The notes below the pieces were generated by a model, which saw only the letters and a program-made list of their open reading frames with translations, searched no databases and had not been told where the DNA came from. The position numbers were made by a program, and so were the translations under genes. Below, one piece after another: positions 1-37,459 of a DNA stretch of 64,000 nt. The stretch is taken from the NCBI RefSeq assembly GCF_964355755.1, contig NC_092678.1, positions 14,162,371-14,226,370 of the forward strand, given 5' to 3'. Positions within the stretch are counted from its first letter, which is position 1, and each line of letters opens with the position of its first letter. The DNA is from Antedon mediterranea. Lineage: Eukaryota; Animalia; Echinodermata.

Positions 1-10
1 GAGTCTTGAT

Positions 11-553
11 TTGAGAATTCTACTTGCATCGTGTCCAGATGGCACGCATTGTTGCATCGACTGTTCTCGTCTTGTAGGTGTGGTACGATTCTCTTGTGAA
101 AGTCAATGCGACTGTGCAATAGCAAAGCTGGGTATACCCTACGATCATCAATCGTTTGGAAACAAAACACATCCGAGCATAGCATTGGTGGCAAAACGCA
201 CAGCTCCGTTTTGTTCATCGGTCGTGATCGATGATGACGTGGCGGTGTTTATGGACGTCAAACACATAGACTGGTTCACCGTTCAACTGTTGTGCATGTC
301 TTTCGACATGGAAGCTGTCGTCGATCTGAAAGAGAAAACGTTAACCGTTCAAAACGTTATAATAGAGGAAGATGATAAAACAGATTTGGCACATTTGAAA
401 ACAGAAAGATACACCTTAGCGATGCGCTACATTAAGAGCAAGGAGAAGAAGAAGAATAAGAAGAAGAGAAATACTAAAAAGAAGAACCGATTGTGGTATG
501 AAACGTTTCGTTGTCGGATACGTGGTGACAGAAGTGACAGCGGTGGTCGTTGA
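11..553 (+). CDS. Hypothetical viral protein, Cys-rich N-part and basic C-tail; probably starts left of the window
   Basis: 180-aa open frame without an ATG at its start, viral-like composition, overlaps the protease start. Confidence 0.5.
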   Translation: MRILLASCPDGTHCCIDCSRLVGVVRFSCESQCDCAIAKLGIPYDHQSFGNKTHPSIALVAKRTAPFCSSVVIDDDVAVFMDVKHIDWFTVQLLCMSFDMEAVVDLKEKTLTVQNVIIEEDDKTDLAHLKTERYTLAMRYIKSKEKKKNKKKRNTKKKNRLWYETFRCRIRGDRSDSGGR

Positions 554-1730
554 CAAAGAATATGATGTAACGCCTGACGTGATAGATCGATGGAAACTCA
601 TCGGATTGCCGGTTCGATGGAAACACGTGAAAGCACGTAAGAACGGTGTTGGAATACATTCATCGGGAGGCATCGGTACGGTTCTAGATTGGTGGCGAGA
701 CAATACACATCCAGACGCACACGAAGAAGGAACAGGTGCAGTGGCCGTTCTTATAGAGATCACGAATGAACCGTTTTTACGCAGTCCATTCTCACAGCAT
801 CTAAACTGTCTGTCACTCAGCTACAGACGCGCCGATCACACTAAATGCGTTGAAGTTTCTCTCGTGGAGATTGGTCAACGAAAAGGTACAGTGGCCGTGT
901 TCTGTAGTGACGAGCGCAGCGCCAGACGTACAGCAGAAAAAAGATTTGGATATAAACGTCGTCGCAAAGTAAAAGAGGAAAAAGAAGGTGCAATGTCTGT
1001 GAAGAAGGAAGAAAATTTGCTGGCGGAATTGGAAGTAGTGAAAGATATGGCGAACACGTTACCACCGGAAAAACTCGATGCTCTACTCTCGCTGTTGAAA
1101 GACAAGGAAGAGAGCAACGTAAAAGACAAACAAAAAATCAAGGAAGAGGTGGATCTCTTGCGTGAACAATTCGGTGACTTTATACTCCGTTTGAGAGAAA
1201 CGATGGAGGGAAGACTCGGACCTGAATACAATAAGCAAATGAAAGACTTTAAAGCGGTGACGGATCGATGGGACACGGATCCTGGTATTGACGTTGCCGC
1301 CTCGTTTAAGGCCGCCAATGATCTCATCGATGATGCCACCTTGAACATGGCAAACAAGACCGAATTGGGTGATTTGCTCAAGCGCCGTTTTCCAAAAATG
1401 GAAGATCAAGTGAACGTTACAAACGCTACATCATTGAGCGAAATACTAGACATTCACAAGCGATTGTTGACAAAAAACAACGAGAATACGATTAACGTCT
1501 GCAACGATTACTTCAAAACAGTCGAACAACGAATCAAAAATAATACAATGAACGATCATGGTAATAGAAAACGTAAACACAAAACGAATGAACCGCCAGA
1601 GAAAAAACTTAAAGCCACCGCCGCCGCCGCCGCAGCAGGAGCCACCACCACAGACGATGAATTTGAAAAACGTATAAACAGTCTCGAGAAACTTACAGAA
1701 ATGTTGGGCAAACAACTGCTAAACTGCTAA
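498..1730 (+). CDS. Capsid maturation (assemblin/prohead-type) serine protease fused to helical scaffold domain
   Basis: Motifs in the correct order: LPVRWKH (His), IGTV, CLSLSY (Ser nucleophile; cf. herpes LSLSS), EVSLVEIGQRKGTVAV (cf. herpes HVALC..GRRxGT.A); C-terminal charged coiled-coil with NLS-like RKRKHK/KKLK. Confidence 0.85.
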   Translation: MKRFVVGYVVTEVTAVVVDKEYDVTPDVIDRWKLIGLPVRWKHVKARKNGVGIHSSGGIGTVLDWWRDNTHPDAHEEGTGAVAVLIEITNEPFLRSPFSQHLNCLSLSYRRADHTKCVEVSLVEIGQRKGTVAVFCSDERSARRTAEKRFGYKRRRKVKEEKEGAMSVKKEENLLAELEVVKDMANTLPPEKLDALLSLLKDKEESNVKDKQKIKEEVDLLREQFGDFILRLRETMEGRLGPEYNKQMKDFKAVTDRWDTDPGIDVAASFKAANDLIDDATLNMANKTELGDLLKRRFPKMEDQVNVTNATSLSEILDIHKRLLTKNNENTINVCNDYFKTVEQRIKNNTMNDHGNRKRKHKTNEPPEKKLKATAAAAAAGATTTDDEFEKRINSLEKLTEMLGKQLLNC

Positions 1731-1973
1731 AAAAAAAATAAAATTCAATAATAAATAAACAACTTGTTTGTTTTTTTCTTTGTGGTTTTTTATTCTCACA
1801 ATACATTGCAATTACACGAGTAACTTGCGTCCATGTCTTCTACACCGAGTGTAACATTGTCCAACAGTCTACGTCGGCCAATAAACGATGGTGGGTTCAC
1901 GACTTCATCACCGGTACGCAGACAACGTCTAAGTCTGTCTCGTTTGATTTTGTTCTCGTCAATACACAAATCA
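1729..1973. repeat. ~245-bp exact direct repeat, copy 1 (bidirectional poly(A) region plus 3' end of a minus-strand gene)
   Basis: Identical to 5409-5653 (offset 3680). Confidence 0.95.
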
Positions 1974-2299
1974 GCTTCTATCACTGTCAAAACAATGGAA
2001 ACTCCGTCATCGTACAACCGTTGGTTTTCACAGAAATTGTACACACGTGCGCCAAAGTTATGCCTACCGTCTCGAAGCTCTAACGCGATGGCAATTCGTC
2101 GAATCTCTTTAGGCGAGCACGTTCGAAACCAAAGTTTGAATTCATACGTATCCTGTTGGCTTTGATGAAATGATGCAGTGCTAGTGATCGTTCTCGACGT
2201 ACCGCTGAAATCGGAAGCTATCAAATGCGCCTTTGTTGGAACGTGTGGCGATTTCAAACTGAGCGCAAACATAATTCCATAATTCACATAAAAAGGCAT
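1796..2299 (-). CDS. Hypothetical protein, chimeric: last ~59 aa identical to ORF 5476-6621
   Basis: 167-aa ATG ORF ending DLCIDENKIKRDRLRRC...SCNCNVL. Confidence 0.5.
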   Translation of the reverse strand: MPFYVNYGIMFALSLKSPHVPTKAHLIASDFSGTSRTITSTASFHQSQQDTYEFKLWFRTCSPKEIRRIAIALELRDGRHNFGARVYNFCENQRLYDDGVSIVLTVIEADLCIDENKIKRDRLRRCLRTGDEVVNPPSFIGRRRLLDNVTLGVEDMDASYSCNCNVL

Positions 2300-2360: not shown

Positions 2361-3164
2361 ATGAACAGATCAGACAAGAAAAAATTGCGTCAAAATCGTC
2401 TCTATTTTATTCGTAACATAAACAACATTAGAGAAGTAATGGAGAAATTGGTACAGAAAGGCGTGTATTCGACCAAGAAGATGGATGCAATTTTATCTAA
2501 AACGAACGCTCGTGAACGATTGTTGATCGACATCGAAACACGAGGTAGTTTTGCGTACAATGCATTTATCGATTCTATCCATGATGGCGGATTGAACGAG
2601 TACAAGATGACTTCAAACCCGCGCGGTTTCACAGTAATCATCAACAATTATGATGATGATGATGATGATGATTGTGCAGCGCTTGAAAATGTCTTCAATT
2701 ATCTCGGCTTCCAACTGTCTGTTAATCACAATCTGACGTCCATAGAAACGAAGACGTTGCTCACACGTCTAAGTGAATACGATCACTCTAGACTAGATTG
2801 CATTGCCGTGTGCATTCTCACTCACGGTACTGTCAATGTCACTGAAATCGTCGACTGTTTCGAAAAATGTGAAACGTTGAACGGAAAACCTAAACTCTTT
2901 TTCATACAAGCTTGTCAAGTAGACGAAACAATTGTCGTGCAGCCTCAATCGTTGCCGAGAGGCCGTGACGTATCCATTACGTATTCGACCCTGGACCGTC
3001 AGTATAAGTTTATTCAGTCACTCTGTAAAGTGTTTCATTCGTATTCAACAAAACACGATTTAATGTCCATGTTGACTCTTGCCAACGGAACAATTAAAAG
3101 CAATCAGGTGGCCGCAACCCAGCACGGTCTTTGTAAGAAACTCTTTCTACGTCCCGTGCACTAA
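2361..3164 (+). CDS. Intronless CARD-caspase (initiator caspase-like), shortened; possibly a decoy
   Basis: CARD-like N-terminus (LRQNR...LIDIETRGSFAYNAFIDS), YKMTSNPRG..IINN, ILTHG, LNGKPKLFFIQACQ, FIQSLC; ATG at 2361. Confidence 0.9.
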   Translation: MNRSDKKKLRQNRLYFIRNINNIREVMEKLVQKGVYSTKKMDAILSKTNARERLLIDIETRGSFAYNAFIDSIHDGGLNEYKMTSNPRGFTVIINNYDDDDDDDCAALENVFNYLGFQLSVNHNLTSIETKTLLTRLSEYDHSRLDCIAVCILTHGTVNVTEIVDCFEKCETLNGKPKLFFIQACQVDETIVVQPQSLPRGRDVSITYSTLDRQYKFIQSLCKVFHSYSTKHDLMSMLTLANGTIKSNQVAATQHGLCKKLFLRPVH

Positions 3165-3166
3165 AC

Positions 3167-5407
3167 ATGCATGCCTACTTTACACGAGTGAAATACTGCC
3201 AGAAAAAATTGACAATTCGTTGTACAGACCCGATCGGACGACGTTTGTCGCTGCAGACAAGCAATGTTGAATTCGTCGAATACGTTGAAGATGACGTGTG
3301 CGGTGACTGTGTAATGAGCAGAGGTGACAAATACGTAGCATCGAATCGAAAATACAGAAAAGTTGTATCAAACAACAGAAAGAGAATGATAAACGCTTTC
3401 GGCAATCTTCCATCTGTCGACGACGATCTGGACGCTCAGTGTGCAGTCGGTGTACACGGATGTGCATGGCATCGATACTCGTTGAATGAGCATGGATTCG
3501 TTTCGAACGTACACTATGATGAGCAAGTGCACTTTGAATGCGAAAAAATACATCCTGTAAAACTGTCCGTTCTCTACTTGATCATTAGATTGAACGTATA
3601 CGGACGAATCATTGCGGCACTGTCTTACGACGGTACGAGTGTTGTACAAGCAGCAACAACAGACGACAATGAACGAAGCATACTGCTTGGAATCATAAAA
3701 TCTTTCGATTCAGTTGACGTGCTCGTCTATCACGGAGAATGGGTGAGAGCGAGCATACGAGCACGATGTAAGACATTGAACGTGCCGATCGATAGCATGC
3801 CCATTTGTCTAGACACCACGAACGATGGGCGCACGTTATGTTGTGATCCAAACTCCCTGTACGAGTACGTTGGTAGACGATCCTGTTTTGAGTTGATGGC
3901 CAGCGTATCGGACGGGGCCATGCAAGACGACGCGTCTCTTTTGCCAGAATATTGCAAACAGGTAGAATCGAAAAATTTGATTGATACACTGATGAACGTG
4001 TCTAGACTCGTCGGAGTGTTCCCGAACGCATCGAGAACGCAGGTGCTCTCATCCCTGCTTTGCCGCGAGGCTATACGTCGACAAACTGTTTTTCCAAACA
4101 CTCGTCGTAGAAAATCGACGCGAGACGTTAAAGGTGGTCTTGTACTGGAAACTGTACCCGATATTCACGAACACGTAGAAGTGTACGATTTCAAATCCTA
4201 CTATCCACGCTTTATAGTAGACAAGAATGTAGACTGTTCAACAATGTGTGAGGACGGTTCTTTTGTCGATCGGAACGTACGCGAAGGTCTTTTGCCGTCT
4301 GTCATGAAGAGACTGGTGTTGGGGCGAGATGCTCATCCGCAGCACGCGACTGCCTACAAACGAGCCGCCAACGAATGCATAGGGTGTCTAGTAATTACCG
4401 GCAGTGTTCAACTGTACAACTACGTGACCTCGAAATGCAGACAGCAACTTTGTCGTCTAAAGAAATTCGCCGAAGATAACGGAGCTCGCGTTCTGTACGG
4501 AGACACGGATTCATTGTTTGTGAAACTAGCTGATGATTGTGGCAGCAGCAGAAAACGTTTGGAAGAAAAATTTGCGCAGGTTATAGGCGGCGGCGGCGGC
4601 GGCAGAGATAGCTGGCAGAAATTTGTACACAGAGAGACACTCTGTCGATTGTTATTGACCAACAAGAAGAAAAGGTACGCGTGTTTGCACGCCGACGGGA
4701 ACATCAGCACCACTGGCATGTTCACCTTAAAATGTGACGTTGAACCATTACTTACAGAACTGGATAAAAACTTTGTTGAAACAGCTCTGAAGGAACGCGA
4801 TTGCAACGCGGCCATAGATACGTGCATCGACATCATGCAAACACTTGTCTGTAAACTGAAAGACTCGCAGCAAGTAGACGAGTTAATGATGCGTAGAGTG
4901 TCCAAGAAAGAGACTAGCTCTGCCGCGTACAAGCAAATGTGCATCGCCTTTGGACTGTATCGACAAGTGCCCTACTACATCCGACATAACGGAGTGGCGT
5001 ATCATCCGTTGGCTGCTGCCTGTTGCAATTCGACAGTGGACGCAACCGATCTACTAAGAGGTCTAAGAAAACGTTGTCGCATTGATACAGATTCCGTGCT
5101 GGGCGTTCTCGTTTCTTCTTCTTACAACAACAATATCATAAGTATACAAGAACGAATGGATAAGATGTACGCTATGATTGCAAACGTTCCATTGCATCTC
5201 TCTCGCGCGAAAACATATGAGCAGCAGCAGCAGACAACAAATGTGGACTGTTGCGCTAAAGTTGTATGCACAACGAGCCAAGAAGAACGTCAGGTTAGAA
5301 AGAACGAGCACGTTTTTAGCAGCGTGCAAGAAGAAGATAAAAGAATACTGTTTATTGTACGCTGTCACGATGCCCTTTGTAAACGGGCACATGCTTTCTG
5401 CGCTTGA
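3167..5407 (+). CDS. Family B DNA polymerase, short (746 aa), exonuclease motifs degenerate
   Basis: KGGLVLE, motif A YDFKSYYP, motif B YKRAANECIG, motif C YGDTDSLFV, KKRYA. Confidence 0.92.
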   Translation: MHAYFTRVKYCQKKLTIRCTDPIGRRLSLQTSNVEFVEYVEDDVCGDCVMSRGDKYVASNRKYRKVVSNNRKRMINAFGNLPSVDDDLDAQCAVGVHGCAWHRYSLNEHGFVSNVHYDEQVHFECEKIHPVKLSVLYLIIRLNVYGRIIAALSYDGTSVVQAATTDDNERSILLGIIKSFDSVDVLVYHGEWVRASIRARCKTLNVPIDSMPICLDTTNDGRTLCCDPNSLYEYVGRRSCFELMASVSDGAMQDDASLLPEYCKQVESKNLIDTLMNVSRLVGVFPNASRTQVLSSLLCREAIRRQTVFPNTRRRKSTRDVKGGLVLETVPDIHEHVEVYDFKSYYPRFIVDKNVDCSTMCEDGSFVDRNVREGLLPSVMKRLVLGRDAHPQHATAYKRAANECIGCLVITGSVQLYNYVTSKCRQQLCRLKKFAEDNGARVLYGDTDSLFVKLADDCGSSRKRLEEKFAQVIGGGGGGRDSWQKFVHRETLCRLLLTNKKKRYACLHADGNISTTGMFTLKCDVEPLLTELDKNFVETALKERDCNAAIDTCIDIMQTLVCKLKDSQQVDELMMRRVSKKETSSAAYKQMCIAFGLYRQVPYYIRHNGVAYHPLAAACCNSTVDATDLLRGLRKRCRIDTDSVLGVLVSSSYNNNIISIQERMDKMYAMIANVPLHLSRAKTYEQQQQTTNVDCCAKVVCTTSQEERQVRKNEHVFSSVQEEDKRILFIVRCHDALCKRAHAFCA

Positions 5408-5408: not shown

Positions 5409-5653
5409 AAAAAAAAAATAAAATTCAATAATAAATAAACAACTTGTTTGTTTTTTTCTTTGTGGTTTTTTATTCTCACAATACATTGCAATTACACGAG
5501 TAACTTGCGTCCATGTCTTCTACACCGAGTGTAACATTGTCCAACAGTCTACGTCGGCCAATAAACGATGGTGGGTTCACGACTTCATCACCGGTACGCA
5601 GACAACGTCTAAGTCTGTCTCGTTTGATTTTGTTCTCGTCAATACACAAATCA
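5409..5653. repeat. ~245-bp exact direct repeat, copy 2
   Basis: Identical to 1729-1973. Confidence 0.95.
5411..5475. terminator. Bidirectional polyadenylation region between convergent genes (duplicated at 1731-1795)
   Basis: AATAAA on + strand and TTTATT (AATAAA on - strand) with a GT-rich tract between two stop codons. Confidence 0.6.
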
Positions 5654-6621
5654 TCATTATCATCACATTCGTTGTGCCGGCCCAAAAATAGAGAAAACAC
5701 ACTCTCGGTGCTTGCTCTGTCCGGTCCGTGTAACACGGTTGATTCGGTTACGCACGGAGGCAACTTGATTCCAATGGCACCTAATCGTTTCCATACACTC
5801 GGTTGAAATATGTCGGCGCTTGACGTGAACGCCGTACTGCGATCATTCACTTCTGTGAGTAATCGTAACGGACATACAAACTGCGAGAATACTGTATCGA
5901 TGTACTTACGATACTGATACCAATTTCGTAACAGATTGCGCCTATTCAACGACACGTCTGAAATGAACGCTCGAACGTCAGTGTCGGCCAATTCGAAATC
6001 TAATACAGTCCGGTTACCGTCATCCTCCTCCTCCTCCTCCTCCTCCTCCTCCTCATTCTCTTGACCAAGAAAAACCAAGTCTCGAGATCGATTGGCAAGA
6101 TCTACAAACATGTCGTTCATCGTTTGCAACGAGAAAACGGCTGTAAGAAAGTCAGCGTTTAACCATCGAATCGGTTCGTTGACTCGAGCTTTAAGAAATT
6201 TCGGCCGATTACCCGTTTGTATGTCACCTCCTACGTACAATTGATCAAGACACGTCTCCAGAATGCGCGCACAATCAGACGCTTGCGAGCCCTGATTGTA
6301 TGATAAACACAAGTGTCGGAATATTCTCATGAGAAGCTCAAAGTAAGGATTGTCCGAACCGTAACGTTTACCATCAAAGTACCATTGAAACGTTGCAACA
6401 GTGTCTATAGTGTACGATCCAACGAACATTCGCCAATCGTGCATCGAGTCTAGCGTACGAAATAGATCCATAAATTGTGTAAAATCGTCTAATCTAGCCA
6501 TCCATAAACGTTCAGTTTTTTTGTCATCATCGTCTACAGTCAAAAGTTTCGACCAAGAAACGTGCACGGCAGGTGATGGAAGTCCGAGTCTCAACACACA
6601 CACTGTCTTTAACAATTCCAT
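5476..6621 (-). CDS. Hypothetical viral protein (~381 aa) with acidic run
   Basis: Long ORF, first ATG at 6621 (MELLKTVCV); no recognisable motif. Confidence 0.7.
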   Translation of the reverse strand: MELLKTVCVLRLGLPSPAVHVSWSKLLTVDDDDKKTERLWMARLDDFTQFMDLFRTLDSMHDWRMFVGSYTIDTVATFQWYFDGKRYGSDNPYFELLMRIFRHLCLSYNQGSQASDCARILETCLDQLYVGGDIQTGNRPKFLKARVNEPIRWLNADFLTAVFSLQTMNDMFVDLANRSRDLVFLGQENEEEEEEEEEEDDGNRTVLDFELADTDVRAFISDVSLNRRNLLRNWYQYRKYIDTVFSQFVCPLRLLTEVNDRSTAFTSSADIFQPSVWKRLGAIGIKLPPCVTESTVLHGPDRASTESVFSLFLGRHNECDDNDDLCIDENKIKRDRLRRCLRTGDEVVNPPSFIGRRRLLDNVTLGVEDMDASYSCNCNVL

Positions 6622-7049: not shown

Positions 7050-7829
7050 TCATTTCAATTGATAGCGTTTTCGTTTGCTGCCAGATCGTTTACGGCACAT
7101 GTAATGGAATGCTACATTGATTTGCAACAGTTTCTGATCAGTCAACGGTTTACCGTACTGCAGTTCATGTTCCATAGACAGTCGACAGTCAACTGAATCG
7201 AAATCGTTGATGTGTCTTAGAATTGTATCGAGAAATATGCGGCCGGTACGTTTGAGTGAATCGACCGTTTGAAATTGCGTGTTGCAACGGAGTGACGGTG
7301 AAAACAGTTGAAACTTTCGATCGCGTCCGTCTCCTCCGTCCTTGCGATCGTTTGAGATTGTAAACTTGATGGATGGGAAACGATCGTTACTGTCCACCGA
7401 CTGAGATTCGTTCAACTTGAGGCGTTCCACAACAACCGATGGATTGTCTCGAATTCCATAAATTCTTCCCGCGTGATTCAGGTTATTTGTAGACGTGTGC
7501 ATCGGAACGCTCTTGAACTTTCCCCATAACAGTGTCTGATGAAATTGATAATTCAATGACGTTTTTGTTCGTACGTTGAAATTTCCTCTCGTCGTAATGT
7601 TTGTCGAGCCGGTGGATGCAAACGACAAGGCGGTGGATCCTCGACATAACGGCGATTGAAATTCTACCATGTCGTCTTGTAATTTGGTTCCTCGCATGTG
7701 TATGGAATGTGTCTTTTCACGTTTGTCGTACGCGTATCGATGAGCAATGTTCTGCGACGACACCACGTTCACTAGGAAGAAATTGATGGCAGCTGTTTTA
7801 CACGTAGATTCGACTTGGACGTGCACCAT
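7050..7829 (-). CDS. Hypothetical viral protein (259 aa) with basic C-terminal NLS-like tail
   Basis: ATG ORF ending RKRSGSKRKRYQLK. Confidence 0.65.
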   Translation of the reverse strand: MVHVQVESTCKTAAINFFLVNVVSSQNIAHRYAYDKREKTHSIHMRGTKLQDDMVEFQSPLCRGSTALSFASTGSTNITTRGNFNVRTKTSLNYQFHQTLLWGKFKSVPMHTSTNNLNHAGRIYGIRDNPSVVVERLKLNESQSVDSNDRFPSIKFTISNDRKDGGDGRDRKFQLFSPSLRCNTQFQTVDSLKRTGRIFLDTILRHINDFDSVDCRLSMEHELQYGKPLTDQKLLQINVAFHYMCRKRSGSKRKRYQLK

Positions 7830-7984: not shown

Positions 7985-9421
7985 TCAATGCGTTGGAAAC
8001 AATGACACCAAGAATCGACGTTCTCTGTCGTTGTAAACTCTAAACTCTACCGACGACGACGATGACGAAGGTTTTCGATACAGATTCAATGCTGATCGAA
8101 CAAACACGACCGCTAACGTGCCGTCTGCGTTGTCAATCAACAGGTTCATATGATCAACTGTTATGTTTGCGCCACTTTCTTGAAACACCACATCTCCAAC
8201 TAGCGTTTGAAAGTCTCTGTAAAACAAATGAACGACATTCTGCGCCACCATCTTCACCGATAACATGTCCATAGATTCGATGTTGGTGCGCTGTGATTGA
8301 ACGTCGTTCTTCAACACTAGAAACGACTTTCTGTTCTCCGGTATTGGATTTAAATTGTCAACAAGCCGATCGATAAAACGTTCACCGAGAACACTTCGAT
8401 ATCGATCCAGTATAGGCAGTTCATCGGACGGCTGGCATTCCAGAGCCTTACATATGTTCATGTCAGAGTTTACGTACGTGTACCAGTAAGCCGTTTCGAA
8501 TTTTGTCATACCACCTCTTATCTTCACAAATTGTCTGCAGAGGCCGACAAGAGTGTGTAATATCTTCGACTTTTGCCCAGTGTCTCCAAGTCTTTTCATG
8601 TCTGTGTATTGCACCTCATCAAATTGTTGGCATTCGTTGTACATTGTGGCCGTCACCATGGTCATTGCGGCAGAAAACACGTCCGATTCACTATTCAGCA
8701 GTTTCACCACTCTGTCTGTCATCACGTGACTGATATCTCGATACCCTATGGACACTAGTCTTTCTACGCTGCGCACTCCTCCGAATCCAGTGTCAACGTC
8801 CATTGTGTAGATCGGCATGTCCGATGGTATGTACGCGGAGGCTATCGATTCTCCGTGAACGCATCCAACACCTCCAAATAAGCCGACCTTTTTGCTCGAT
8901 TCAAATTCGATCATTTTTCGACGATGTACTTCGGCCGAACCGAAATCAATAAACTTGAATCGACCCTGCCGTCTGTTGTACGTCACATTCCTGATGGTTA
9001 TGTCGTTATGTGCGACTCCTATCTTGTCCAGAAAAGCAAGCCCCTCGCCAACATGTCGATAAAGTGTAAGCACGCACGGCAACATTTGCATTGTCATCCG
9101 TATTGTAAACAAGTCAAAACCTTCGTTTGTCATGCGCAGACATTGAGTCACTCCTGAATCGACGACTGCCTGACATATTTGCGGCGTGTACCGTTTCAAT
9201 CTGTCAAAGTAGTTTGCGTAAGCTAAAATGAAAGTTTCCTTGTTGAATGTTAAACGTACTCGTGCATCGCTGCTATTCTGATTGCCACAATGTAATTTTT
9301 CAACTAAACCAGACTCTATCGAATGGACAACGCCAAAAGAACCTCGGCTGTTCACAGTCACCAACGGATCGATTGTATTATCCAATTTGCCAAACGATAA
9401 AATCTTCTTTTGACCATGCAT
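7985..9421 (-). CDS. Divergent Ser/Thr protein kinase 1
   Basis: RGSFGVV glycine loop, VEK, HNDITIRNV, IDFG, SDVFSAA; ATG at 9421. Confidence 0.9.
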   Translation of the reverse strand: MHGQKKILSFGKLDNTIDPLVTVNSRGSFGVVHSIESGLVEKLHCGNQNSSDARVRLTFNKETFILAYANYFDRLKRYTPQICQAVVDSGVTQCLRMTNEGFDLFTIRMTMQMLPCVLTLYRHVGEGLAFLDKIGVAHNDITIRNVTYNRRQGRFKFIDFGSAEVHRRKMIEFESSKKVGLFGGVGCVHGESIASAYIPSDMPIYTMDVDTGFGGVRSVERLVSIGYRDISHVMTDRVVKLLNSESDVFSAAMTMVTATMYNECQQFDEVQYTDMKRLGDTGQKSKILHTLVGLCRQFVKIRGGMTKFETAYWYTYVNSDMNICKALECQPSDELPILDRYRSVLGERFIDRLVDNLNPIPENRKSFLVLKNDVQSQRTNIESMDMLSVKMVAQNVVHLFYRDFQTLVGDVVFQESGANITVDHMNLLIDNADGTLAVVFVRSALNLYRKPSSSSSSVEFRVYNDRERRFLVSLFPTH

Positions 9422-9447: not shown

Positions 9448-10692
9448 TTAAGAGAGAATGGCTTTCTGACGTTTATCTATTTTACCTCGACAAATCGGAC
9501 ACAAAAGCAAACTGTTTGAACACGACCAGCAGGCGACCAAATGCGAACATGGAATGAAAAGAACACAAACGTCAGCGTCCATGCATATCTTACATGTTTT
9601 TTTTTCGCGTAAATCGCGCACAACAGATTGCAAATCTTCTTCTTCCTCCACTTCTTCCTCTTCTACCACTGTTGGTTTATCGTTCACTGGAATCGTGACA
9701 GCGTTCAGAAGCTCAAGGGTAGACGTAAAGTTTCCACCGGTTCTCTTCACGTGATCGTTTACAGTAGTCGATACATGTTGCATGTCAAAACCCATTTCTA
9801 AAACTTTCACAACGATTTCAGAGCGCATTGCAATATCAAACGGACTTTTTGACGAAATAAGAGCCGTCTCGATGAAAGAAAAACCTTTTTCGATTCTCAA
9901 CCAATTGCAGAACGGAAACCACTTTGCATGCTCGATCCAAGGATTATCGTCTAATTGCCAGTCTTTCAGTCCACCGCCGCAATGGAAACACATTGCCTGG
10001 TCCCGATTGATTGCAAAGAATCCGGCCTCGGCTATTCCGTTCGGCGTATGATCGGTAGCCCATACTGTAGTAAACGTCATTTTTCGAACATTCAAAAGAG
10101 CGTATTGTGGATGCATTGCCCGTTGCCTATTGGTGGTGGTGGTGGTGGTGGTGGTGGTGGGGGTCGCCACGGTGGCCACGGTGGATAACATGAACTTACA
10201 CAACGGAAAATGTTTTCTATGCTCTTCGTCGACATTCACTCCTCTTTTCCATCGCTCAAGTAAACCGTTGCAAGAGAAGCATTCGACTACGTCACAGCAT
10301 GACCTGTAATAAAATCCAGACTTTGCTAAAGTGCACGCCGATACGATGTGTCCAAATGGCCAGTTTTTAAAAGTCGACAATCTGACCATATGCGAGTTTG
10401 AGTCGACCAAATGTGTTTTACTGCCAATTAAAGGACTGCTGTTACCACATGACATCAGTTTGCACAACGGGAAGTGTTTCTTGTGCTCTGTATCGGCATC
10501 TGCTCCGGCGTTCCATCTCGAAAGTTTACCGTGACAACGGTAACATTCTACCCGGTCGTCTTGCCCCGTATAAAAGAAGCCCGACATTGCTAACGATGTA
10601 GGCGATATCACGTGTCCCGCAATCCAAAACTCATACGTGGCCAATCGTCTTTCATAACATTCCATCGCGCCTGTATGCACTATTTTATTCAT
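9448..10692 (-). CDS. Inhibitor of apoptosis (3 BIR + UBA + RING), intronless
   Basis: Three BIR repeats (RLATY/RLSTF/RKMTF ... CxxC ... H ... C), VLEMGFD UBA, C-terminal CKICMD..PCSHLVAC..C..CPICR; likely ATG at 10692 (MNKIV). Confidence 0.96.
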   Translation of the reverse strand: MNKIVHTGAMECYERRLATYEFWIAGHVISPTSLAMSGFFYTGQDDRVECYRCHGKLSRWNAGADADTEHKKHFPLCKLMSCGNSSPLIGSKTHLVDSNSHMVRLSTFKNWPFGHIVSACTLAKSGFYYRSCCDVVECFSCNGLLERWKRGVNVDEEHRKHFPLCKFMLSTVATVATPTTTTTTTTTNRQRAMHPQYALLNVRKMTFTTVWATDHTPNGIAEAGFFAINRDQAMCFHCGGGLKDWQLDDNPWIEHAKWFPFCNWLRIEKGFSFIETALISSKSPFDIAMRSEIVVKVLEMGFDMQHVSTTVNDHVKRTGGNFTSTLELLNAVTIPVNDKPTVVEEEEVEEEEDLQSVVRDLREKKTCKICMDADVCVLFIPCSHLVACWSCSNSLLLCPICRGKIDKRQKAILS

Positions 10693-23809: not shown

Positions 23810-23841
<32 letters not shown>

Positions 23842-26800: not shown

Positions 26801-27014
26801 TGGTATACTAACAATTTCAACCAGCTGCCTCTACGCGCCTAGTCATAAATCCAATCCTAGATTCTATATTTACCGATATTGCGCCCCTATATAGTTTTTG
26901 ATAAATTACTAATAATGTTATGGTATCGATAGATTGTAAGCCAGCCGAATGGTTAGTTCTTGAGTCTCGTAATGTAACGCTGTAGCCTTAGGCTAGGGTT
27001 CGAGAATTGATTTG

Positions 27015-27057
<43 letters not shown>

Positions 27058-27850: not shown

Positions 27851-27852
<2 letters not shown>
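22317..27852. repeat. Array of ~6 tandem units of ~0.8-1.05 kb with internal (CT)n and (AT)n tracts and higher-order structure
   Basis: Unit anchor GTTAACTACACGCG recurs near 22320, 23375, 24380, 25205, 26082 and 27100. Confidence 0.97.
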
Positions 27853-27888
<36 letters not shown>

Positions 27889-27913
27889 GAAAATATAACT
27901 TCAAGTCAATGAT

Positions 27914-28101
27914 AACAACAGCGCGCTTCATTGTTAAGCATTCAGGTAGACCATCATGATAACAGCGCGCTTCATTGTTAAGCATTCAGGTAGACCATCA
28001 TGATAACAGCGCGCTTCATTGTTAAGCATTCAGGAAGACCATCATGATAATCAGCGCGCTTCATTGTTAAGCATTCAGGTAGACCATCATGATAACAGCG
28101 C
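27914..28101. repeat. 44-bp tandem repeat, ~4.3 copies
   Basis: AACAGCGCGCTTCATTGTTAAGCATTCAGGTAGACCATCATGAT at 27917, 27961, 28005, ~28049 and a partial copy at 28094. Confidence 0.95.
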
Positions 28102-28465
28102 GGCGCTTTATCGGAAAATTTTTCCTAGAATCGGTAGTATACATTTTTATTTTATTCGATGAGAAGTGTATAATAATTACGCGATGTTATTTCTTTCAGT
28201 AAACATACTATCTGTACATAATCATTATAAAGTGCGCGTTTATCAATGGTATTCTTGCATGTGTAATGATTAAAACAGAGAACGAGACGGCTAAATTTCA
28301 TTCGTTTTATTGGCAACACACACACACACAAAATATATATATAAAAAAACTCACACGTATACAATGTAATTTATATAAGACCATAAACATAATATGAATG
28401 CACGGGGGTATGGTATGAAATCATTTTTTTTTTTTTTTATATATACATATTTACATATTATTAGT

Positions 28466-31400
28466 TCATAACGTTTGTTTTGAGCACGTACACGGTGAAA
28501 GTTTCTTTTCACCAGTCTTGTAAACCAGTGGTCTGAATGCGTGCAGTTTGTCCTTTTCTATAATTGCATCTTCTACGAGTCTTATGTGGCGTAAATAAGT
28601 GTCCACGTCGTGTCCAAATCGTTCTCTCAGTTTAATCTCCGTACCATCGGACAACATTCTAATCCATGCTTTTCGTCGTTGAACGTGCGACGGTTCGGCT
28701 TCAAGAAATTGCGGTTCTTCTAACTTGAATCTTAATCTATCACGATCTACTACCTCGGTTGTTGGATTTCGAAGCGTTTGTGTCAGATACGGATTTTTAC
28801 ACTTGTGTACCGGTAGACTACCGCCGTTCTTTTCGGCCAATTGCTGAATGTCTAACGTCTGAAACACATCTCTTGTACTACGATCCACGTACATGATGGT
28901 TTTACGTTCAGTCATATTTTTAAACACGCACTTTTCCAATACACTCTTGATCATTGATTCGCCGGCTTTCACTTTGTAATGCTTACACGCGTCTTCCAAT
29001 GAATTCAACGTCAACAGATTTACGTGAAAGAATACGTTCGGTGGTGGTGTTTCCGAGATGATCGAAGAAGAATTGATCAAGTGTCTCAAGTCGTTTGTTA
29101 GCAAATTCACACCGTTTCTCAGCTCATCCGCCTCGAACTCGTCATTTACCAGAACGCGTATTCGATTACCTCGGCACGCGTTTTTATCTTCGAGCACAAC
29201 CTTTGTGCACAATTCGAGTATTTTTTTCAAACGTCTATGTTGTGGCAAAAAGACGCTAACGTGTACCATAAAGGCTCGAGCGTTCGACGTTTCCAATACC
29301 AATCTGCACGTGTGATCGTTGTTCATCACCGGCGGTGGCATCGGTAGTCTATCTCTGCTACCGTCATATGATCTGCATTTCAACACCCTTAAACTGTCGG
29401 CAATCTCTTTCACGTCAACACCGACCGCAATTGATCCGTTTTCGTCGCAGTCTCCAGTCACACACGATTGGATTGCGAGTTTCCTAACGTACGCCAGTCG
29501 GGTCTCGTGAAAATCTAAATTTATTTTTATCCAGTATCTTTCTTCGTTGGTAAACTTTTTCGGCACCGATCCTAGATAATTGATGCTGGATTTGGGATCT
29601 TGAGAGTTTGACTGGCCCCAGTACATATGTCGAGCGAAGACGGGCAAATGAGACAAGAAGCGTGCGGCTTGTGTAAGTTTTCCATTGAGCATAACGTATA
29701 TGTAATGTTTTCCCCTGTACTGTTTTGCATTGCACATTCCTGCCATCATCACGTCCGATATTTCACGGTACTCGTTCGCATGTGACGAAAGATGAGCTTC
29801 CGTTGCCTCGCTACATTTGAACAGAAGCTGTTTTTGTCCGTTATCGTCCATTTTTCGAAACAACTTACTCCGTCCACTGTGCATAGCCAACAATATTTCC
29901 TTACATTGTTTGCGAGCAACACCCGTTTTGCGCTCTAAAATGGACAGAAGCGCCTCTTCGCTCCTGCACGTCAATTCAAAGTAAGTTTCACCATCTCGAT
30001 GAACGGGATCATGAGAAGGATCAATCAACTGATCCGCTATCGTTCTCATGATGATCAGTTCGTTCTGTGGCATCGGACACATTAACGAAAATGCAAACAA
30101 AATATCAGCAGGATCCGGCTGCGCCTCGGACATTACCATGTCGTGTAGTCGCTTCATGTCCTGTTGCATCAGCCACCGTTGATGTTTGGCTATGATTCTT
30201 GAATTGAGACAACAAGTGTTCTCGTTCGGTAATCGAGGTGTATTGGCGTGCAGACTTTGTAACGGACAGCCGTTCACTTGAATCACTGCATTGTGAAAGG
30301 CGCACAAACGTGCCAGGTCGATGAGTTTATTGATGGTTCTAGTTTCTGTGGCGAATCCGAATCGGACTCCTTGCCTTTCCAATTCGACAGATATTCTATC
30401 GCAAGTCAACAGTAGCATACGATCGTCTTTGTACGAATCCCCTTCCGATCGACGTGGATACAGACCGCACTCTGCCAACCGTACATGTTCCATTACTTTG
30501 TGGCGCAGGGCGCCGAATTGCGTTCGAATTTTTAAACGATCCAATTCCTTCTCGTATCCCTCCATTTTCTTGGGCACGTTGACAACACCACTGGGTGCCA
30601 CGTCAAAAGTGACAACTCGTTCGTTTAACGAGTTACACAAGTTTTTTTCGTTCATGGCCATTATGGTGGCATTATCGCAAACGTTGATTACGGTTCGAAC
30701 ACCGTGTCGAGTGGTTCCCGTGTTCGGATCCGTTACCTTCTCGGTTCGTTCGGTGCGCGTACAGCCGGAATCGAGTTCCTCTTTCATTATTGCCGCTTCT
30801 TGACTGCTTTCAATTGACAACGGATTCTTATCGCTTTTAGATCCAGACGACGGTGGCACAAATTCGTTCATGAAGCGTTTTTTTTTTTAATTTTTGTACT
30901 TTCGCTCATTATCGACGAGCACGGCTTTCTGTGTTCGGTAAGTAACGTCGTCTGAGTAAGCGTTACCGATTACAGATTTAGCGGCTACCATCACAGACGT
31001 TTTACCCGTACCGGGAGGTCCTACCAGAATGGCGTGCATGGCCATCGCATCGTGTGGGCATACGATACGTATAGCCGACAGTAAAATGTACAAAAGTTCA
31101 CCTTTAGCGTTAGACACACCGGCCACATTACCTATCAGAGCCACCATGTTCAAAAGATATCGATAACCTATCGATATTTTCACGTCAGTTTCCTCTTCGT
31201 ATACGAATGGAACAAAACTGCCGTCACTGTGTCTAGACGCGTTCATACACCAACCCTTCATCTCGGTATCCCACATATCGGCATACGATTGCGTTATTAC
31301 TTCGCTCATTTGCACGTGTCTTCCCATATGCACTTGCGTGTACATGTCAAAGAAAATTTTGCCGACAGTCTTGTCACGGTATCTTTCCGGAGTCAATTGC

Positions 31401-31561
31401 AAGTTGTGAAAAATCTTTCTCATCATCACTATGCCCGGATTCTTTGCCGTGTATTTTTCACCGTATAAATGCCTATTAAGAAAAAAAAAAAAAACAAAAA
31501 AAAAAAACGAAAACAATTATAAATCAAAAGTAAAACACGCACACTACAATTTGTGTTGTGG

Positions 31562-31593
<32 letters not shown>

Positions 31594-32832
31594 ATAAAAT
31601 ACGTACCTCGAGTCTATGGTCACTTCGTTCTGATTCTGGTTGGTTACATACAGTTTTCCGATTGCCGAAATTTTGTCTTCGTCCAATTGCGCTGCATCAT
31701 CGCGCATAGCGTGAACAAACAATTTTGTATTACCAATGTTCGTATCACTTTCAAGTGCAGGAAAGTGTCTTTTCAAAAAATAATTCGCCTCGTACATGTG
31801 AGGTTCCAATATCCACGCTTTCATATGTTGGAAGCTTACACAACGACTATCGCCTTCGTTCATTATAACTCTCGGATCAATCTGTTGCAAAGACAGTTTA
31901 AGAGTCGGAGGTAGATTCAATTCTTTGTCGGCAATTGTCATCAACTGATCGAGAGTTAGCGCATTACTCGATTCATTTGCAATCAAACGTGTCAGCTCAC
32001 GTCGATGAGTTGCACGTCTAGATGACGAAAAAAGAGTCTTTGGTGTAAACAGATCTGCGCGCTTTTGCCACGCCTCTGCTGTATCTTGTTCTCTAACAGT
32101 CGGGGGCAATCGATTGCCTTCGATTTTCGGTATGTCTAAACAGAAATATTTTTCAATGCTTCTTTCAAAATCCCCGAGCACTGTCACGTGTGGAACATAG
32201 CTATTTATCTTGGTTCGTTTCATTTGCGACGTTCCACGACCCAATCGGCAATCGAAATGTTTAAATGCATATTTTATTGTCGCCGTTGCTGAATCGTTTC
32301 GTTTACGTTTTGTCTTTTTACGTTTCGGTTCATTATCATCATCATCGTCGTCATCATCATCATCATCATCATCATCAAGATCGTTGTCGGAAAACATTTC
32401 GCATCGGACGTCTGTCAAGAATGTTGTGTCCCATGCTGGCAGGTATCCGTTGTTTATCAACAGTATGGACTTGACAACGTACTGTAACATTTTGTGCAAA
32501 CGTCGTGGGAAGATCAACCAGAACACGTAACCGCACGACACCTTACCCCGAACCGTTTCATCCACGATGCGACTAGGTTCAATAAGAGAGCACACCAGTG
32601 CGTGCTGTTCATCGTTGCAGTGCAACTGTAACGCTTTTCTCAACAACACCATCATCATTATGTACGTATGCGGGGAGCAATTGCGCAGCGAGTTTGTCGG
32701 TATTTCAAACGATTTCAACTCGACGCACATGATGTGCATGGGTTCACCAAACACAATATCGTCCGTAATTCGACTGCCCGGCCATAATTCACATGGCAGT
32801 AGATCATCGGCTGTACTCTCAGATTTACTCAT
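28466..32832 (-). CDS. Divergent MCM-like AAA+ helicase (~1,410 aa); exons 32832-31607 and 31472-28466; one in-frame TAA at 30887-30889
   Basis: GT-AG intron 31606-31473 joins the frames (DSR|HLYG); Walker A GPPGTGKT, Walker B-like RFMNE, sensor-1 TIMAMN, Arg-finger-like SLNERV, sensor-2-like TRTINKLIDLARLCA. Confidence 0.78.
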
Positions 32833-33111
32833 TTTCAACAACCGCGCGACTTTAACTAAACATTAAAAATACACATATACTCTTATATATTCACAATCAC
32901 ATACGTTGATATTTTCCAAGGTGGACATCGATTAGACAGTGTACAACTTACCAGGAGATAATACTCATGCCTATTAATTATGCATAAACTTTTGAAGGTC
33001 ATCGTCTTTTCAATTCGCAAGGAAGTCTTTTATTTAGAAACGTTCAATGCCAACGATTCAATTGTATACACACATAATTCACTTTGTACAGAAGTTCAGC
33101 AGTATATATAG

Positions 33112-33192
33112 CCTACACACACTTCAGTGAAGCAGTATCCTACACACACTTCAGTGAAGCAGTATCCTACACACACTTCAGTGAAGCAGTAT
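33112..33192. repeat. 27-bp tandem repeat, 3 copies
   Basis: AGCAGTATCCTACACACACTTCAGTGA with period 27, just downstream of TATATATA. Confidence 0.9.
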
Positions 33193-33206
33193 AATACTAA
33201 CTGATA

Positions 33207-35752
33207 ATGTCTCAGCAAACAGCTAAGTGTAAAGTGCAAGAACATACAATGTGGATGACTCCGTGGTGGACTGACGATGTTGAAGGTAATTCATAAATGT
33301 GTATTGTTTGATTTAGCAACGTAATATTATTTCTATAGTGTCACTAGTTTTGTTGTTTTTGTTTTATCAAGAAGAAATAATGTTACCATAGTTTTACAAG
33401 GGCATGATTCGATATTATCAAGAATATTGTAATATATCTTTTCATTTCATTTCATTTATTTATTTCACTTTACAAATATATAAATATAAAGTGGAGGAGC
33501 CTAAAAGAAAGCAAAGCTTGTTGTGAATAGGCTCCTCAAAACAAAACAAATAAAATAGAAATAATATTATAACACAATTAGAAACTCCAAAAAAAAAATA
33601 ACAACAATTAAACTAATATCTTTTCTCTAACACATAAGTTTAACATGTTTAAAACTAAAAAAAAAACAAGTAAAAAATAGATTATATAAATTATTTAAGA
33701 AATATCAAATACATCAATAATAAAAGAATTTACAAAGAACCTTCAACCAATAATAGTTTAAATTGACGTTTAAATAAAGCACAGTTATGAGATTTTTTTA
33801 AGAGATAAAGGAAGAGAATTCCAGAGTTTAGGTCCAGTGTATACAAGGGTATTCATTTTAGTTCGAGTAAATGGCAGGTGATACTAATCTTTTTGTCTTG
33901 TTTGGTGAGTGTGGTATTGTTTATTTTAAGTGAATTTACTGGATATTATAGGTGTCGGGCGGTTAATTGAAACATGATGACACCAACATTAAATCTATAG
34001 AGATCCTCAATTTTTAATATTTTATTTTTTTTTTGAAAGAGATCTTGGGTGTGAGCACGAAAAATTACCCCTGAGATAATTCTGACAGCTCGTTTCTGGA
34101 TTAATAAAATTTTAGTAATAATTGATTTTGAAGCATTTCCCCAAGCAAGAACACCATAATTTAAGTACGATAAAATAAGAGTAGAATATAAAATATTTAA
34201 TACTTTTTGAGGAAATATTGATTTCAATTTATACATCATGCCAACATTTTTTTTGATAATAATTTGCAAAGGTAATTAACATGGGCTTTCCAGTCAAGTC
34301 TGTCGTCAATAAATATACCAAGAAATTTTGTGTTGGTTATTTGATTAATAGGAACATTGTTGAAAATAATATCTTTTGGTAACATACTATATTATTTGTT
34401 ACTAAACAACATAAAATTGTTTTTTAGCATATTTAGTGATAGCTTGTTTGCATGTATCCAATTAGTAACCCTTTTTACCGTGTTATGCAGCGCATAATGA
34501 CAATGATTGTGGTTTGTCAACTTTTTTTTTTTTTTTAAATTTGGTTTTAGTACAACGAACATCAGTTCAGAATGTTTCACAATGGAAAGATAGTGTTAAA
34601 GGTAAATACAATACTAACGTTATATATCTATATTATAAGTGAGAGAGTTTGTACGTCTGTCTGTTTGTTTGTTTGTCTCTTACTTATAATATAGATATTT
34701 AGATAGATATGATTCATACTGAAAAACTTGATGCTCATTGGCATAAATAAATATTCAAAGAGGGCACGAATCAGATGTGTACCCTGAACACATCCAGTAG
34801 TAAATCCTTCTCCGAGAAGCCTTGTATATGTTTTAATTGGTTGCAAACTAGCACCAGCACCACGTACTATTAGTTGTATAATAAAACCAGTTTTTCTTCT
34901 TTTTTTTTTTATAATTTCAGTAACAAGAATACCAATAATGCCGTAAGTATTTTTTCTTCTCTTGACATTACATTTTTGTTTATTTATTCGATTCATATAT
35001 ACATATATATAATTTATTCATAGTACATTCGTAAGAGTTCCCTCGGAAGAGCACCCGTTCAACCCGAAAGAAGAAGAAACCGTGGACAAAGGTAAATTAA
35101 AGTAAATGCATTGTTGGCGAACGATACTATTTAACGCTGCTCATATGATTGTTATAATATAATATTATATATATTTGATTTCATATAGAATCAACACAGC
35201 AACAACCGTTACATTCGACGGGTCGTTGTAAACGCCCTCAACGAACCAGAGGCGTGTTTTCATGGTAGGTTCACCAACTATTATTCTTGTTCATGCAGGA
35301 AAATGCTCCCCAAAAACCCGAAAATCATTATTTTTTATTTACGTCATGTTTTCTTTCACAGGCAAAGCACACTTCTGCCTTTTAAGGAAACGTACGCCTT
35401 TGATTCCGAAAACGACAACAACAGCAATATAGACTACCTGATAGCTTTGTCGTGCTCTGCTGTACATAACAGTGACACGGCAAAAGTAGCAGATATATTA
35501 AAATGGAATGGCTTCACGTATATCAGAATGAAGCCAACAAAAGACAAACAAACCATAATGAGGTATTTGAATAGATGCAAACGCGTTATTGTGTTCCAAA
35601 ATCTATTCTTTGAAGATTACGTCAATGACGTATTTACTATCTGCAGCGAAAATTTAGGAATGGTGGAGACAACTCTACCATTCAAAAATAACATTTTTGA
35701 TATAACGGTTTTTTCTAGTGGTACTGTCATGCGCGTATTGAAAAGAAAATAG
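33207..35752 (+). CDS. Predicted 5-exon gene of unknown function (~210 aa): 33207-33285, 34921-34942, 35024-35091, 35189-35264, 35362-35752
   Basis: All four introns are GT-AG and phase-compatible, giving one stop-free frame MSQQTAKCK...GVFSWQSTLLPF...RVLKRK. Confidence 0.6.
33440..34470 (-). mobile_element. 5'-truncated CR1/L2-group LINE fragment with 3' hairpin and microsatellite tail
   Basis: LYSTLILSYLNYGVLAWG...IQKRAVRII RT C-terminal motif, WIHANKLSLN, stem GAGGAGCCTA/TAGGCTCCTC (33494-33537), (TGAAA)n tail. Confidence 0.88.
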
Positions 35753-37459
35753 TTTCATTGTCAATAATTTGTCTTTTGTTGGTTTAATTAAATAATACCT
35801 TTCATCATTAGTTGTACAAGTATACATTTTTAACTAAATATATATAGGCCTATAGACCTAAATCATAGGCAGGACATAGAAAAAAAAATCAAGATCAAAT
35901 CAGTTAAAACTGCCTCAATATATAAGTTTATGTTTCGGGCATAGCCGATCATCAGGTGAAGAAAATCATCAAATATGAAAAGGCATAGTTATAAAGGCAC
36001 ACTTCCAAACGCTTTGGGGTACAAAGCAGAAATGGTTAGTTATAAAGCAGGAAAAATATACATATGTATAATATATTTGTTTGTGAATGTTAACCTAGTT
36101 CGTTGTACGTGAATCCATACTTTTGTAATATCTGCTGCTAGTGGTGCATATTGTTATGTACATACAGCATCACGGTTGACTGAAATTTCAGTTTGTTTAA
36201 TGTTTTATTTATTGATAGAATTTCAATATATTATTGTACTGTATTTATTGTTTATGAATTTAAATGTCGTTAACTCGGAAATCGTTTTAACAAATAAAAA
36301 AAATTTAAAAAGTTACATCACGTTTGTTTCTTTTTATTTATTCATTTCTTGTGTGTGGGTGCGTGTGCGCGTGCGTGTGTGTGTGTGTTCATGGCTCTGT
36401 CATCCTGTGTGCAGAATTTAGGACGACTACTGAATGCGGATAAAAACTCTATTCGAAGACATGCACAGAAAACCGGTTACATATAAACTTTAATTGTCGA
36501 ATACAATTGCACCAAAGTGCAAATGTATTCTACGTTATAATCAATATTACATTTTAAAATAGATATAGCTAAAAAGTAATACATTAAGGGCGTAATAATA
36601 TTTTACATAAAATAAGTGTTATCTTTTAACTATTGAAAACACATTAAATAAATGATTGTTTGATACCGCCCGCTCGAAAAAAATCTTCCGCGCGGTTCAG
36701 TAAACGTTATCAAAGAATATATATCACAAGAATGAGTATTCCGCGATTTTTTCATGAGATATTTGTAACAGAGAGCTCCAGAGAGTGATGTCCGCCCTCA
36801 TAAGGGCGGATGTATACATACTAAATAAGACTTGATTTAATAGATACCGTATTATACATGTCACATTAAATAGAATTATGATAATATATTTTGCAATTGT
36901 AATATATTTTATAATACATATTTATTAAAAAAACTAGTGTACATTCACTTTATTTACAGACAATTATTTACTAACATGCTAAATTCGTTCACAAAAAAAG
37001 GCCTAACACAGCAACACCAAAAATCAACGAATCCTTACTCAGCACGGTCTATTCTTATCATTGCCGCGTAGTACTCTACGCCCGGTAAATTAAGTATTGT
37101 TTTTATGATACAAATTAGTATAAAATACATGTTATTAATAGGATAAAATGTTAAATGTCATTAACATGTATTTGTTTTACCAGAAACAAGTTAAATATAG
37201 GAATATTATTAAACTATCCTTCGTGAAAACGCGTAAACACCAACACGCCCGGTCACGCTATCGTAGCGCCCGGTTGATAAAGCAAACTGTTTATGCGGCA
37301 GTTTTTACTAAATAAATTGCATAAAACGAACAATTAAATATCCAAATAGCATTTAACATAATGTTGGCATCTAGTTGATAACATTTTTTTATCATGAAAA
37401 GTTGTATACATCCCAGATCCCAATCTTAAAAAAAAATTGAAATGTGTTTGAATAATGAT

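Follow-up and report, generated by a model that had tools for sequence, protein, structure and literature searches.

The 64,000-nucleotide stretch of the Antedon mediterranea genome considered here (contig NC_092678.1, positions 14,162,371 to 14,226,370; hereafter, the window) carries virus-type genes in its left half and animal DNA in its right half. An initial annotation, made from the letters alone, described the former as a divergent, herpes-like virus integrated in the chromosome. Our analysis supports this description and sharpens the affinity of the element to the Alloherpesviridae, owing to a full-length fold match of one of its proteins to Allo56. Overall, we consider it likely that the element is a young, multicopy endogenous virus that resides in a feather star and belongs to a still unnamed Herpesvirales lineage of invertebrates, with the Alloherpesviridae as its relatives. 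The left edge of the window cuts the element, whose DNA continues further left; the window holds its right-hand part, in a copy that is damaged and probably defective. As annotated, Pfam finds here a capsid protease fused to a scaffold (by a match below the cut-off), a family-B DNA polymerase (PolB), two protein kinases (one of them above the cut-off), an inhibitor of apoptosis (IAP) and a caspase with a CARD, while the MCM-like helicase is recognised by its fold.

The observed/expected CpG ratio is 1.0-1.5 in all six segments spanning positions 1 to 32,840 and is lower to the right (0.69 at 32.8-35.0 kb, 0.72 at 37.4-53 kb and 0.91 at 53-64 kb), apart from the interval 35.0-37.4 kb, where it is back up to 1.34. 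The coding blocks at 1-12.5, 14.4-18.5 and 28.5-32.8 kb have a GC content of 42-46% and are occupied over 90-100% of their length by intron-poor open reading frames (ORFs); AT-rich stretches without coding capacity separate them, that at 18.5-28.5 kb being the larger. The viral block had been called both CpG-rich and gene-dense; the first property holds throughout, whereas the second fails over a 10-kb region of tandem duplications. Indeed, 19 chosen ORFs cover 58% of positions 1-35,800 and 90% of 1-12,500, as against 7% of 18,531-28,460, where tandem-duplicated DNA makes up 83%. Counts of the word TAGGCCTA amount to 17 right of 33 kb and to 4 within the block at 18.6-28.4 kb, while the three other segments counted have none.

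The affinity to alloherpesviruses comes to light in a gene of about 1,400 codons on the minus strand (28466..32832), which encodes an Allo56-like, MCM-type AAA+ protein. Two exons are predicted (32832-31607 and 31472-28466), separated by a putative GT-AG intron of 134 bp (31606-31473) that has a long pyrimidine tract and keeps the frame; homologues align to the three window ORFs involved as to a single gene. An in-frame stop (30887-30889), with a homopolymer alongside, interrupts exon 2. When the C-terminal 806 residues were compared with 1.84 billion representative proteins, 17 matches were obtained, none of them named, and 14 of these are 1,350-1,554 amino acids long; the Allo56 gene of AciHV-3 measures 4,383 bp (PMC12031113). 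Exon 2 was then modelled with AlphaFold from a 22-row alignment (21 homologues), with an X at the stop, giving a predicted local distance difference test score (pLDDT) of 78 and a predicted template modelling (pTM) score of 0.76. The best BFVD match of this model is ORF111 of RaHV-2 (E 6.6e-15, TM 0.52, 1,082 columns, 10% identity), which we take to be the Allo56 of that virus. It is followed by an unnamed protein of 1,248 amino acids (E 8e-13) and, at rank 5, by "Protein Allo56" of Lake sturgeon herpesvirus (E 5e-7); the remaining 47 rows (50 in all) are partial matches (TMq <=0.27), largely to phage and archaeal-virus proteins.

In the PDB, all five fold matches at E <=0.001 are MCM subunits, as are all 50 VIA rows, the best of which superposes 247 residues with a Z of 16.7 and a root-mean-square deviation (rmsd) of 2.9 Å. 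The likeness to cellular MCM helicases of superfamily 6 (SF6), and to the licensing factor of mirusviruses, lies in the fold of the AAA+ core, where about 235-290 residues superpose at Z 14-17; the viral protein differs from MCM in its size of about 1,400 residues, its long unmatched N- and C-terminal regions and an identity of 9-15%. Sequence searches of the PDB with the protease and the helicase gave nothing past a P-loop. Four motifs line up across the helicase homologues, corresponding to Walker A, Walker B, sensor 1 and an arginine-finger-like motif. By its predicted fold, the core gene Allo56 is present in the element, and the models suggest that Allo56 is an MCM-type DNA-unwinding motor. 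A 2018 study by Mushegian et al. reportedly deals with malacoherpesvirus proteins and could bear on this claim. No MCM assignment for Allo56 was found in the literature among the matches listed, and a 2016 survey of viral helicases places those of SF6 in phages and haloviruses and in no eukaryotic virus (PMC4889955).

The relatives of this protein fall into two deep groups in a quick, midpoint-rooted tree of 17 of the 22 rows (four near-duplicates and one fragment were dropped), which includes no named alloherpesvirus row; the window protein pairs with P0002. The 17 unnamed Allo56-like proteins (P0002-P0018) come from ENA, Logan and JGI data, ten of them on contigs of up to 52 kb. They suggest a hidden clade of related viruses. 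A second scan of JGI metagenomes confirmed one of 30 candidates, contig JYMV01039382.1 (32.8 kb; L001), in which a distant helicase homologue stands back-to-back with a PolB of 1,116 amino acids; genes for a kinase and a Ras-like protein come next. This contig is probably another undescribed herpes-like virus. Its arrangement is that of EsHV-1 and WSHV-1, where the polymerase and Allo56 genes are also back-to-back and where Allo56 is described as having no known function (PMC12567609). The region 290-15424 of L001 also carries several likely membrane proteins, and motif B of its PolB (6491-9841) is odd.

The second diagnostic gene (498..1730, plus strand) encodes a protease for capsid maturation that continues into a scaffold-like region. 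Its closest family is PF25720 (Herpes_ORF28; E 2e-7 to 3e-8, 31-33.5 bits), whereas the assemblin family PF00716 is reached at E 0.14 only. The protein retains assemblin-like motifs, and five of its 30 neighbours in the ESM Atlas are HK97 prohead proteases (S78, 0.93). A single homologue was found (P0001, 55% identical). Met166 lies in frame and is the likely internal start of a separate scaffold, an arrangement described across Herpesvirales (PMC11565193). From motifs and family match combined, we regard an assemblin/prohead protease fused to a scaffold as present, on moderate evidence. When JGI metagenomes were first scanned, using the protease as query, none of the 83 candidates was confirmed. 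The scaffold is 46 residues shorter than that of P0001 and ends exactly where the first copy of a 255-bp direct repeat starts (1729..1983; the second copy is at 5409..5662). The first copy comprises a poly-A-rich junction together with the 58 codons that close an ORF on the minus strand. The two copies, which flank the caspase and the PolB, are identical save for an A-run, and therefore the rearrangement is either recent or an assembly error. A 167-amino-acid ORF (1796..2299, minus strand), whose last 58 residues are identical to those of the ORF at 5476-6621, is likely chimeric.

The element has its own polymerase, a small PolB of 746 amino acids (3167..5407, plus strand; PF00136, E 5e-19). 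Motifs A and C are kept, motif B is altered (the usual ending is absent) and the exonuclease motifs are degenerate. One close homologue (P0044, 47% identical) has the same altered motif B and the same degenerate exonuclease motifs, so these changes are lineage traits rather than decay. Scans of IMG/VR with the PolB and two helicase alignments returned no relatives. Taken on its sequence, the PolB offers no positive support for a herpesvirus ancestry.

This latter result, together with the MCM fold, brings mirusviruses into consideration: the element could belong to an animal-infecting mirusvirus or to a lineage lying between mirusviruses and herpesviruses. The mirusvirus core set includes a DNA replication licensing factor of MCM type, a TATA-binding protein (TBP), a Ras-related protein and a maturation protease (PMC10132985). 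A Ras-like gene is indeed found on L001, and the PolB is not recognisably herpesviral. However, the alloherpesvirus fold match is full-length and extends well past the MCM core, the protease matches Herpes_ORF28, and L001 shows the polymerase/Allo56 arrangement of alloherpesviruses. Furthermore, no RNA polymerase, histone or rhodopsin was found among the scanned ORFs of the window, which holds a partial element; a TBP-like ORF was not confirmed; and the hosts of mirusviruses are described as predominantly unicellular (PMC12768974). We therefore regard a mirusviral identity as unlikely.

Among the captured genes, the most telling about the host is an IAP with three BIR domains, a UBA-like domain and a RING (9448..10692, minus strand). 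Its best match is a 98% identical "BIRC8-like [Antedon mediterranea]", which confirms the echinoderm host suspected in the initial annotation. The corresponding cluster has six members, 98-100% identical, five named Antedon mediterranea and the sixth being the protein of the window itself. Three contigs of chromosome scale (26.1, 36.2 and 39.0 Mb) carry them. Two of the named members are partial, and pairwise identity among the four variants of full length is 98.0-99.5%. In a tree of 19 rows (the window protein plus 18 chosen from 100 matches and the cluster members), four viral IAPs form a long-branched clade that joins host IAPs of Antedon and Anneissia (96/93). The tree suggests that the viral IAP was captured from a crinoid and has had a long association with it. 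The near-identical Antedon copies on three contigs and the grouping with crinoid genes thus identify the host as a feather star and mark the element as young and present in several copies. In the reference proteome, the viral copies (P0075, P0175-P0179) are labelled as host BIRC8-like or XIAP-like genes.

IAP genes are also a malacoherpesvirus trait, and the host is an invertebrate. A virus of the Malacoherpesviridae type, as in the inserts of amphioxus and Capitella, or of the lineage of a starfish insert, has therefore to be weighed, such inserts being known in invertebrate genomes (PMC5552708; bioRxiv 10.1101/2025.04.19.649669). Nevertheless, since the IAP sits with the crinoid host IAPs, it is little informative on viral ancestry. 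In addition, no named malacoherpesvirus protein occurs in the 50 BFVD rows of the helicase, many of which are unnamed, and both diagnostic genes, the Allo56-like gene and the protease, indicate alloherpesviruses. This origin appears to us improbable, more so than a mirusviral one.

The right-hand boundary lies in a junction zone (32833..37400) made up of a 27-bp tandem repeat, a remnant resembling a long interspersed nuclear element (LINE) at about 33.4-34.6 kb and a repeat at about 36.3-37.4 kb. The latter is extremely high-copy, and many contigs part from the window at 37400. The end of the element had been placed at 35,800; it cannot be fixed there and falls between about 33.4 and 37.4 kb. 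From 37330 to 64000 follows host DNA that is unique and of low depth, containing LINE remnants and ankyrin exons. The animal nature of this flank, as first proposed, is borne out by a match to a LINE-type reverse transcriptase zinc finger, by LINE-like remnants seen by eye and by the ankyrin exons. The element is physically linked to the host chromosome at the level of the assembly.

Nine public runs (three organism codes, four studies) contain all or part of the stretch; four of them, all from one sample, contain at least half of its words. No RNA run is among the nine, which says nothing on expression. The contigs of four runs were compared with the window over 27.8-47 kb, and the ratio of viral to host depth could be read in three. 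The viral contigs have a depth of 1,043-1,145 vs 144-164 for nearby host DNA in X1 and of 309-587 vs 72-161 in X5, while in X6 two contigs inside the helicase gene reach 82-92 vs 22-47. Such contig depths do not translate into copy numbers, and the source sample may be X1 itself. The X6 helicase contig differs from the window at 45 of 3,016 bases, and the match of both X5 and X6 helicase contigs to the window ends at 28456. In three runs a contig joins 31985, in the helicase gene, to 36257, in the high-copy repeat, skipping 4,271 bases, with a depth exceeding that of the viral genes. This joined form reflects either the insertion of a host repeat into a different copy or the amplification of a deletion derivative to which the end of the element belongs.

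These data also bear on whether a free or episomal virus of the sequenced animal was mis-assembled onto host DNA. The junction is spanned by no read or contig and is filled with high-copy repeats, the viral depth exceeds that of the host, and assembly errors might account both for the near-exact 255-bp duplication and for the stop, which adjoins a homopolymer. Such an artefact is countered by the distinct IAP variants (98-99.5%, two of them partial) on three chromosome-scale contigs, by the ratio of viral to host depth, only few-fold in the three readable runs, and by the joined contigs, present in three runs, that lead from the helicase gene into the high-copy repeat at 36.26 kb. A misplaced episome is thus, in our judgement, the least probable of the explanations weighed here, and very improbable.

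We return to the endogenous virus related to alloherpesviruses, against which several observations weigh. No HK97 major capsid protein (MCP), terminase, portal or triplex protein was identified among the window ORFs, several of which are long and without family. From the twelve-gene core list of alloherpesviruses (PMC12567609; core genes also in PMC10410580), nine were not identified in the window (terminase, the helicase-primase pair, MCP, triplex 2, Allo37, 54, 60 and 64). The match to Allo56 is of only 10-13% identity with an rmsd of 10-20 Å, and mirusviruses, to whose core genes the MCM-type factor corresponds, may be poorly represented in BFVD. The protease match is below the Pfam cut-off of 40 bits, and the homologue P0001 was reached only at E 0.03; the single-sequence protease model has a pLDDT of 37, so that nothing can be learned from the fold searches made with it, whose best values are Z 3.1 and E 0.1. 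As for the PolB, the other 30 of its 31 matches are only 24-31% identical, no herpesviral polymerase was recognised among the 31, most of which are unnamed, and its best PDB matches are archaeal-type enzymes. With 746 amino acids, it is less than half the size of the AciHV-3 enzyme (4,863 bp; PMC12031113), and it lies 23 kb from the helicase gene rather than adjacent to it. Other invertebrates are thinly represented in the IAP tree. Finally, no contig of the four runs links viral genes to unique host DNA over 27.8-47 kb, and no transposase, telomeric array or convincing terminal inverted repeat was found at the right end. Since none of the window ORFs could be identified as a capsid, terminase or portal gene and the junction is unspanned, we infer both the membership in Herpesvirales and the route of integration.

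Most likely, the element is a deep relative of the Alloherpesviridae and not a member of the family; we set it outside since its host is a crinoid and not a fish or an amphibian. It shares with alloherpesviruses an Allo56-type protein by predicted fold, an ORF28-type maturation protease, spliced core genes and, in its relative L001, the back-to-back polymerase and Allo56 genes. It departs from them by its echinoderm host, its small PolB without detectable specific similarity and an identity of about 10%. The alloherpesvirus AciHV-3 likewise integrates into chromosomes (PMC12031113), but no telomeric repeats are seen at the visible end of the present element. Teratorn, a piggyBac-alloherpesvirus fusion of teleosts, resembles it in being multicopy, young and chromosomal and in having captured apoptosis and proliferation genes; single Teratorn copies also carry occasional stop codons, including in ORF56 (PMC5601938). 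The element differs from Teratorn in its invertebrate host and in that neither a transposase nor a terminal inverted repeat was seen at the right end; the Teratorn surveys consulted covered vertebrate genomes only (PMC5601938, PMC5822658, PMC10175614). Divergent herpes-like DNA occurs as well in amphioxus, Capitella, a ribbon worm and one echinoderm, a starfish, and sandworm and peanut-worm contigs of this kind are described (PMC6950620). However, these inserts were placed with the Malacoherpesviridae or between Malaco- and Orthoherpesviridae, the latter being the position given for the starfish insert (bioRxiv 10.1101/2025.04.19.649669), whereas the element in the window carries alloherpesvirus-type markers. 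The earlier remark that no herpesvirus family is known from echinoderms holds for crinoids in the literature searched, but has to be qualified by that starfish preprint. Neither a crinoid herpesvirus nor an alloherpesvirus-type invertebrate element was found among the literature matches listed; two further reports (PMC12639132, PMC10145014) have little bearing on the element.

The insertion looks young, as initially proposed. In contrast, the statement that most ORFs are intact masks damage to two of the three core genes, namely the helicase, by the in-frame stop, and the scaffold, by shortening; the 10-kb tandem block, which is non-coding, counts as further damage to this copy. Given this damage, the insertion does not look maintained.

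The working of the parent virus can be sketched as follows. Its replication would be nuclear and would use the host RNA polymerase II and spliceosome, given the predicted GT-AG intron and the A-rich junctions between convergent genes. The genome would be copied by the small PolB, predicted to lack proofreading, with the Allo56-type motor acting as an MCM-like ring helicase if the modelled fold is right. An HK97-type capsid would be matured by the assemblin-like protease-scaffold; the protease is proposed from moderate sequence evidence, the capsid by extension. Host cell death and signalling would be managed by the captured IAP, caspase and two kinases. Copies presumably reached the germ line and went on to occupy three or more chromosomes, as seen for the IAP gene and supposed for the whole element. 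Regarding integration, a Teratorn-like transposase located elsewhere in the element is our preferred guess, made with rather less than even confidence; several young copies on different chromosomes would fit this route somewhat better than chance insertion. A repair-mediated insertion followed by segmental duplication ranks second.

A broader reading is plausible, if somewhat short of probable: crinoids may harbour a still-mobile, integration-prone herpesvirus lineage of family level, sister to the Alloherpesviridae and widespread in aquatic data, and Allo56, a gene universal among alloherpesviruses, would encode a ring helicase of MCM type that acts alongside the polymerase. The breadth of the lineage comes from the 17 Allo56-like proteins, in two deep clades, from unnamed aquatic datasets. 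If true, the stem of the alloherpesviruses would be pushed back to early deuterostomes, and their replication motor would be closer to that of mirusviruses and cells than to that of mammalian herpesviruses. While this kind of element is known, its lineage, its host class and the link between Allo56 and MCM appear to be new. Classified invertebrate herpesviruses are described as coming from molluscs only, and alloherpesviruses as being without a usable outgroup (PMC12567609); an echinoderm relative that is chromosomal and multicopy would provide one and would bear on the split between Herpesvirales and mirusviruses. The MCM link would give a testable function to one of the five alloherpesvirus core genes of unknown function, would matter for the herpesviruses of carp, catfish and eel, and would qualify the 2016 survey that had no SF6 helicase in eukaryotic viruses (PMC4889955). 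In addition, viral genes pass as host genes, BIRC8-like among them, in a reference echinoderm proteome.

The remaining features of the viral part can be described briefly. At the left edge, a 5'-open ORF (2..553, plus strand) has a weak match to the Rel-homology DNA-binding domain (PF00554, E 0.0025, below the cut-off); this NF-kB-like match possibly marks a captured immune regulator. The caspase with its CARD (2361..3164, plus strand; Pfam) has both catalytic motifs. Therefore, the anti-apoptotic genes announced in the initial annotation are reduced to one type, the IAP, while the caspase does not qualify. The two occur together in the element, and a pro-death, decoy or non-apoptotic role of the caspase is conceivable. 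Protein kinase 1 (7985..9421, minus strand) is 35% identical to protein kinase 2 (14405..16045, minus strand; Pfam) and weakly related to the kinase of L001. No family match was obtained for the ORF of 381 amino acids at 5476..6621 or for that of 259 amino acids at 7050..7829 (both minus strand). The latter had looked TBP-like by eye, from a two-repeat pattern; this found no backing, as Pfam and the Atlas are blank and the PDB gives chance matches at E >=0.4. Three small ORFs (120, 124 and 191 amino acids; 10790..12425, plus strand) match no family above the cut-off, the 822-amino-acid ORF at 16058..18526 (plus strand) has no significant match, and an orphan ORF of 149 amino acids in the junction zone (35303-35752) has no match in Pfam or PHROG.

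The AT-rich, CpG-rich and near-non-coding block at 18531..28460 consists of tandem duplications of about 83-99% identity and microsatellites, and related DNA is also found at 12.9-13.8 kb. It may represent an origin or a repeat region of the virus, or else a host repeat that was inserted. It encloses a degenerate AlkB-like ORF (21552-22226, minus strand), which lacks the HxD iron-binding motif and is partly duplicated at 19727-20005 and 21405-21488. In the host flank, the ankyrin-repeat exons (54,000-63,200) form tandemly duplicated units of about 0.4-1.3 kb.

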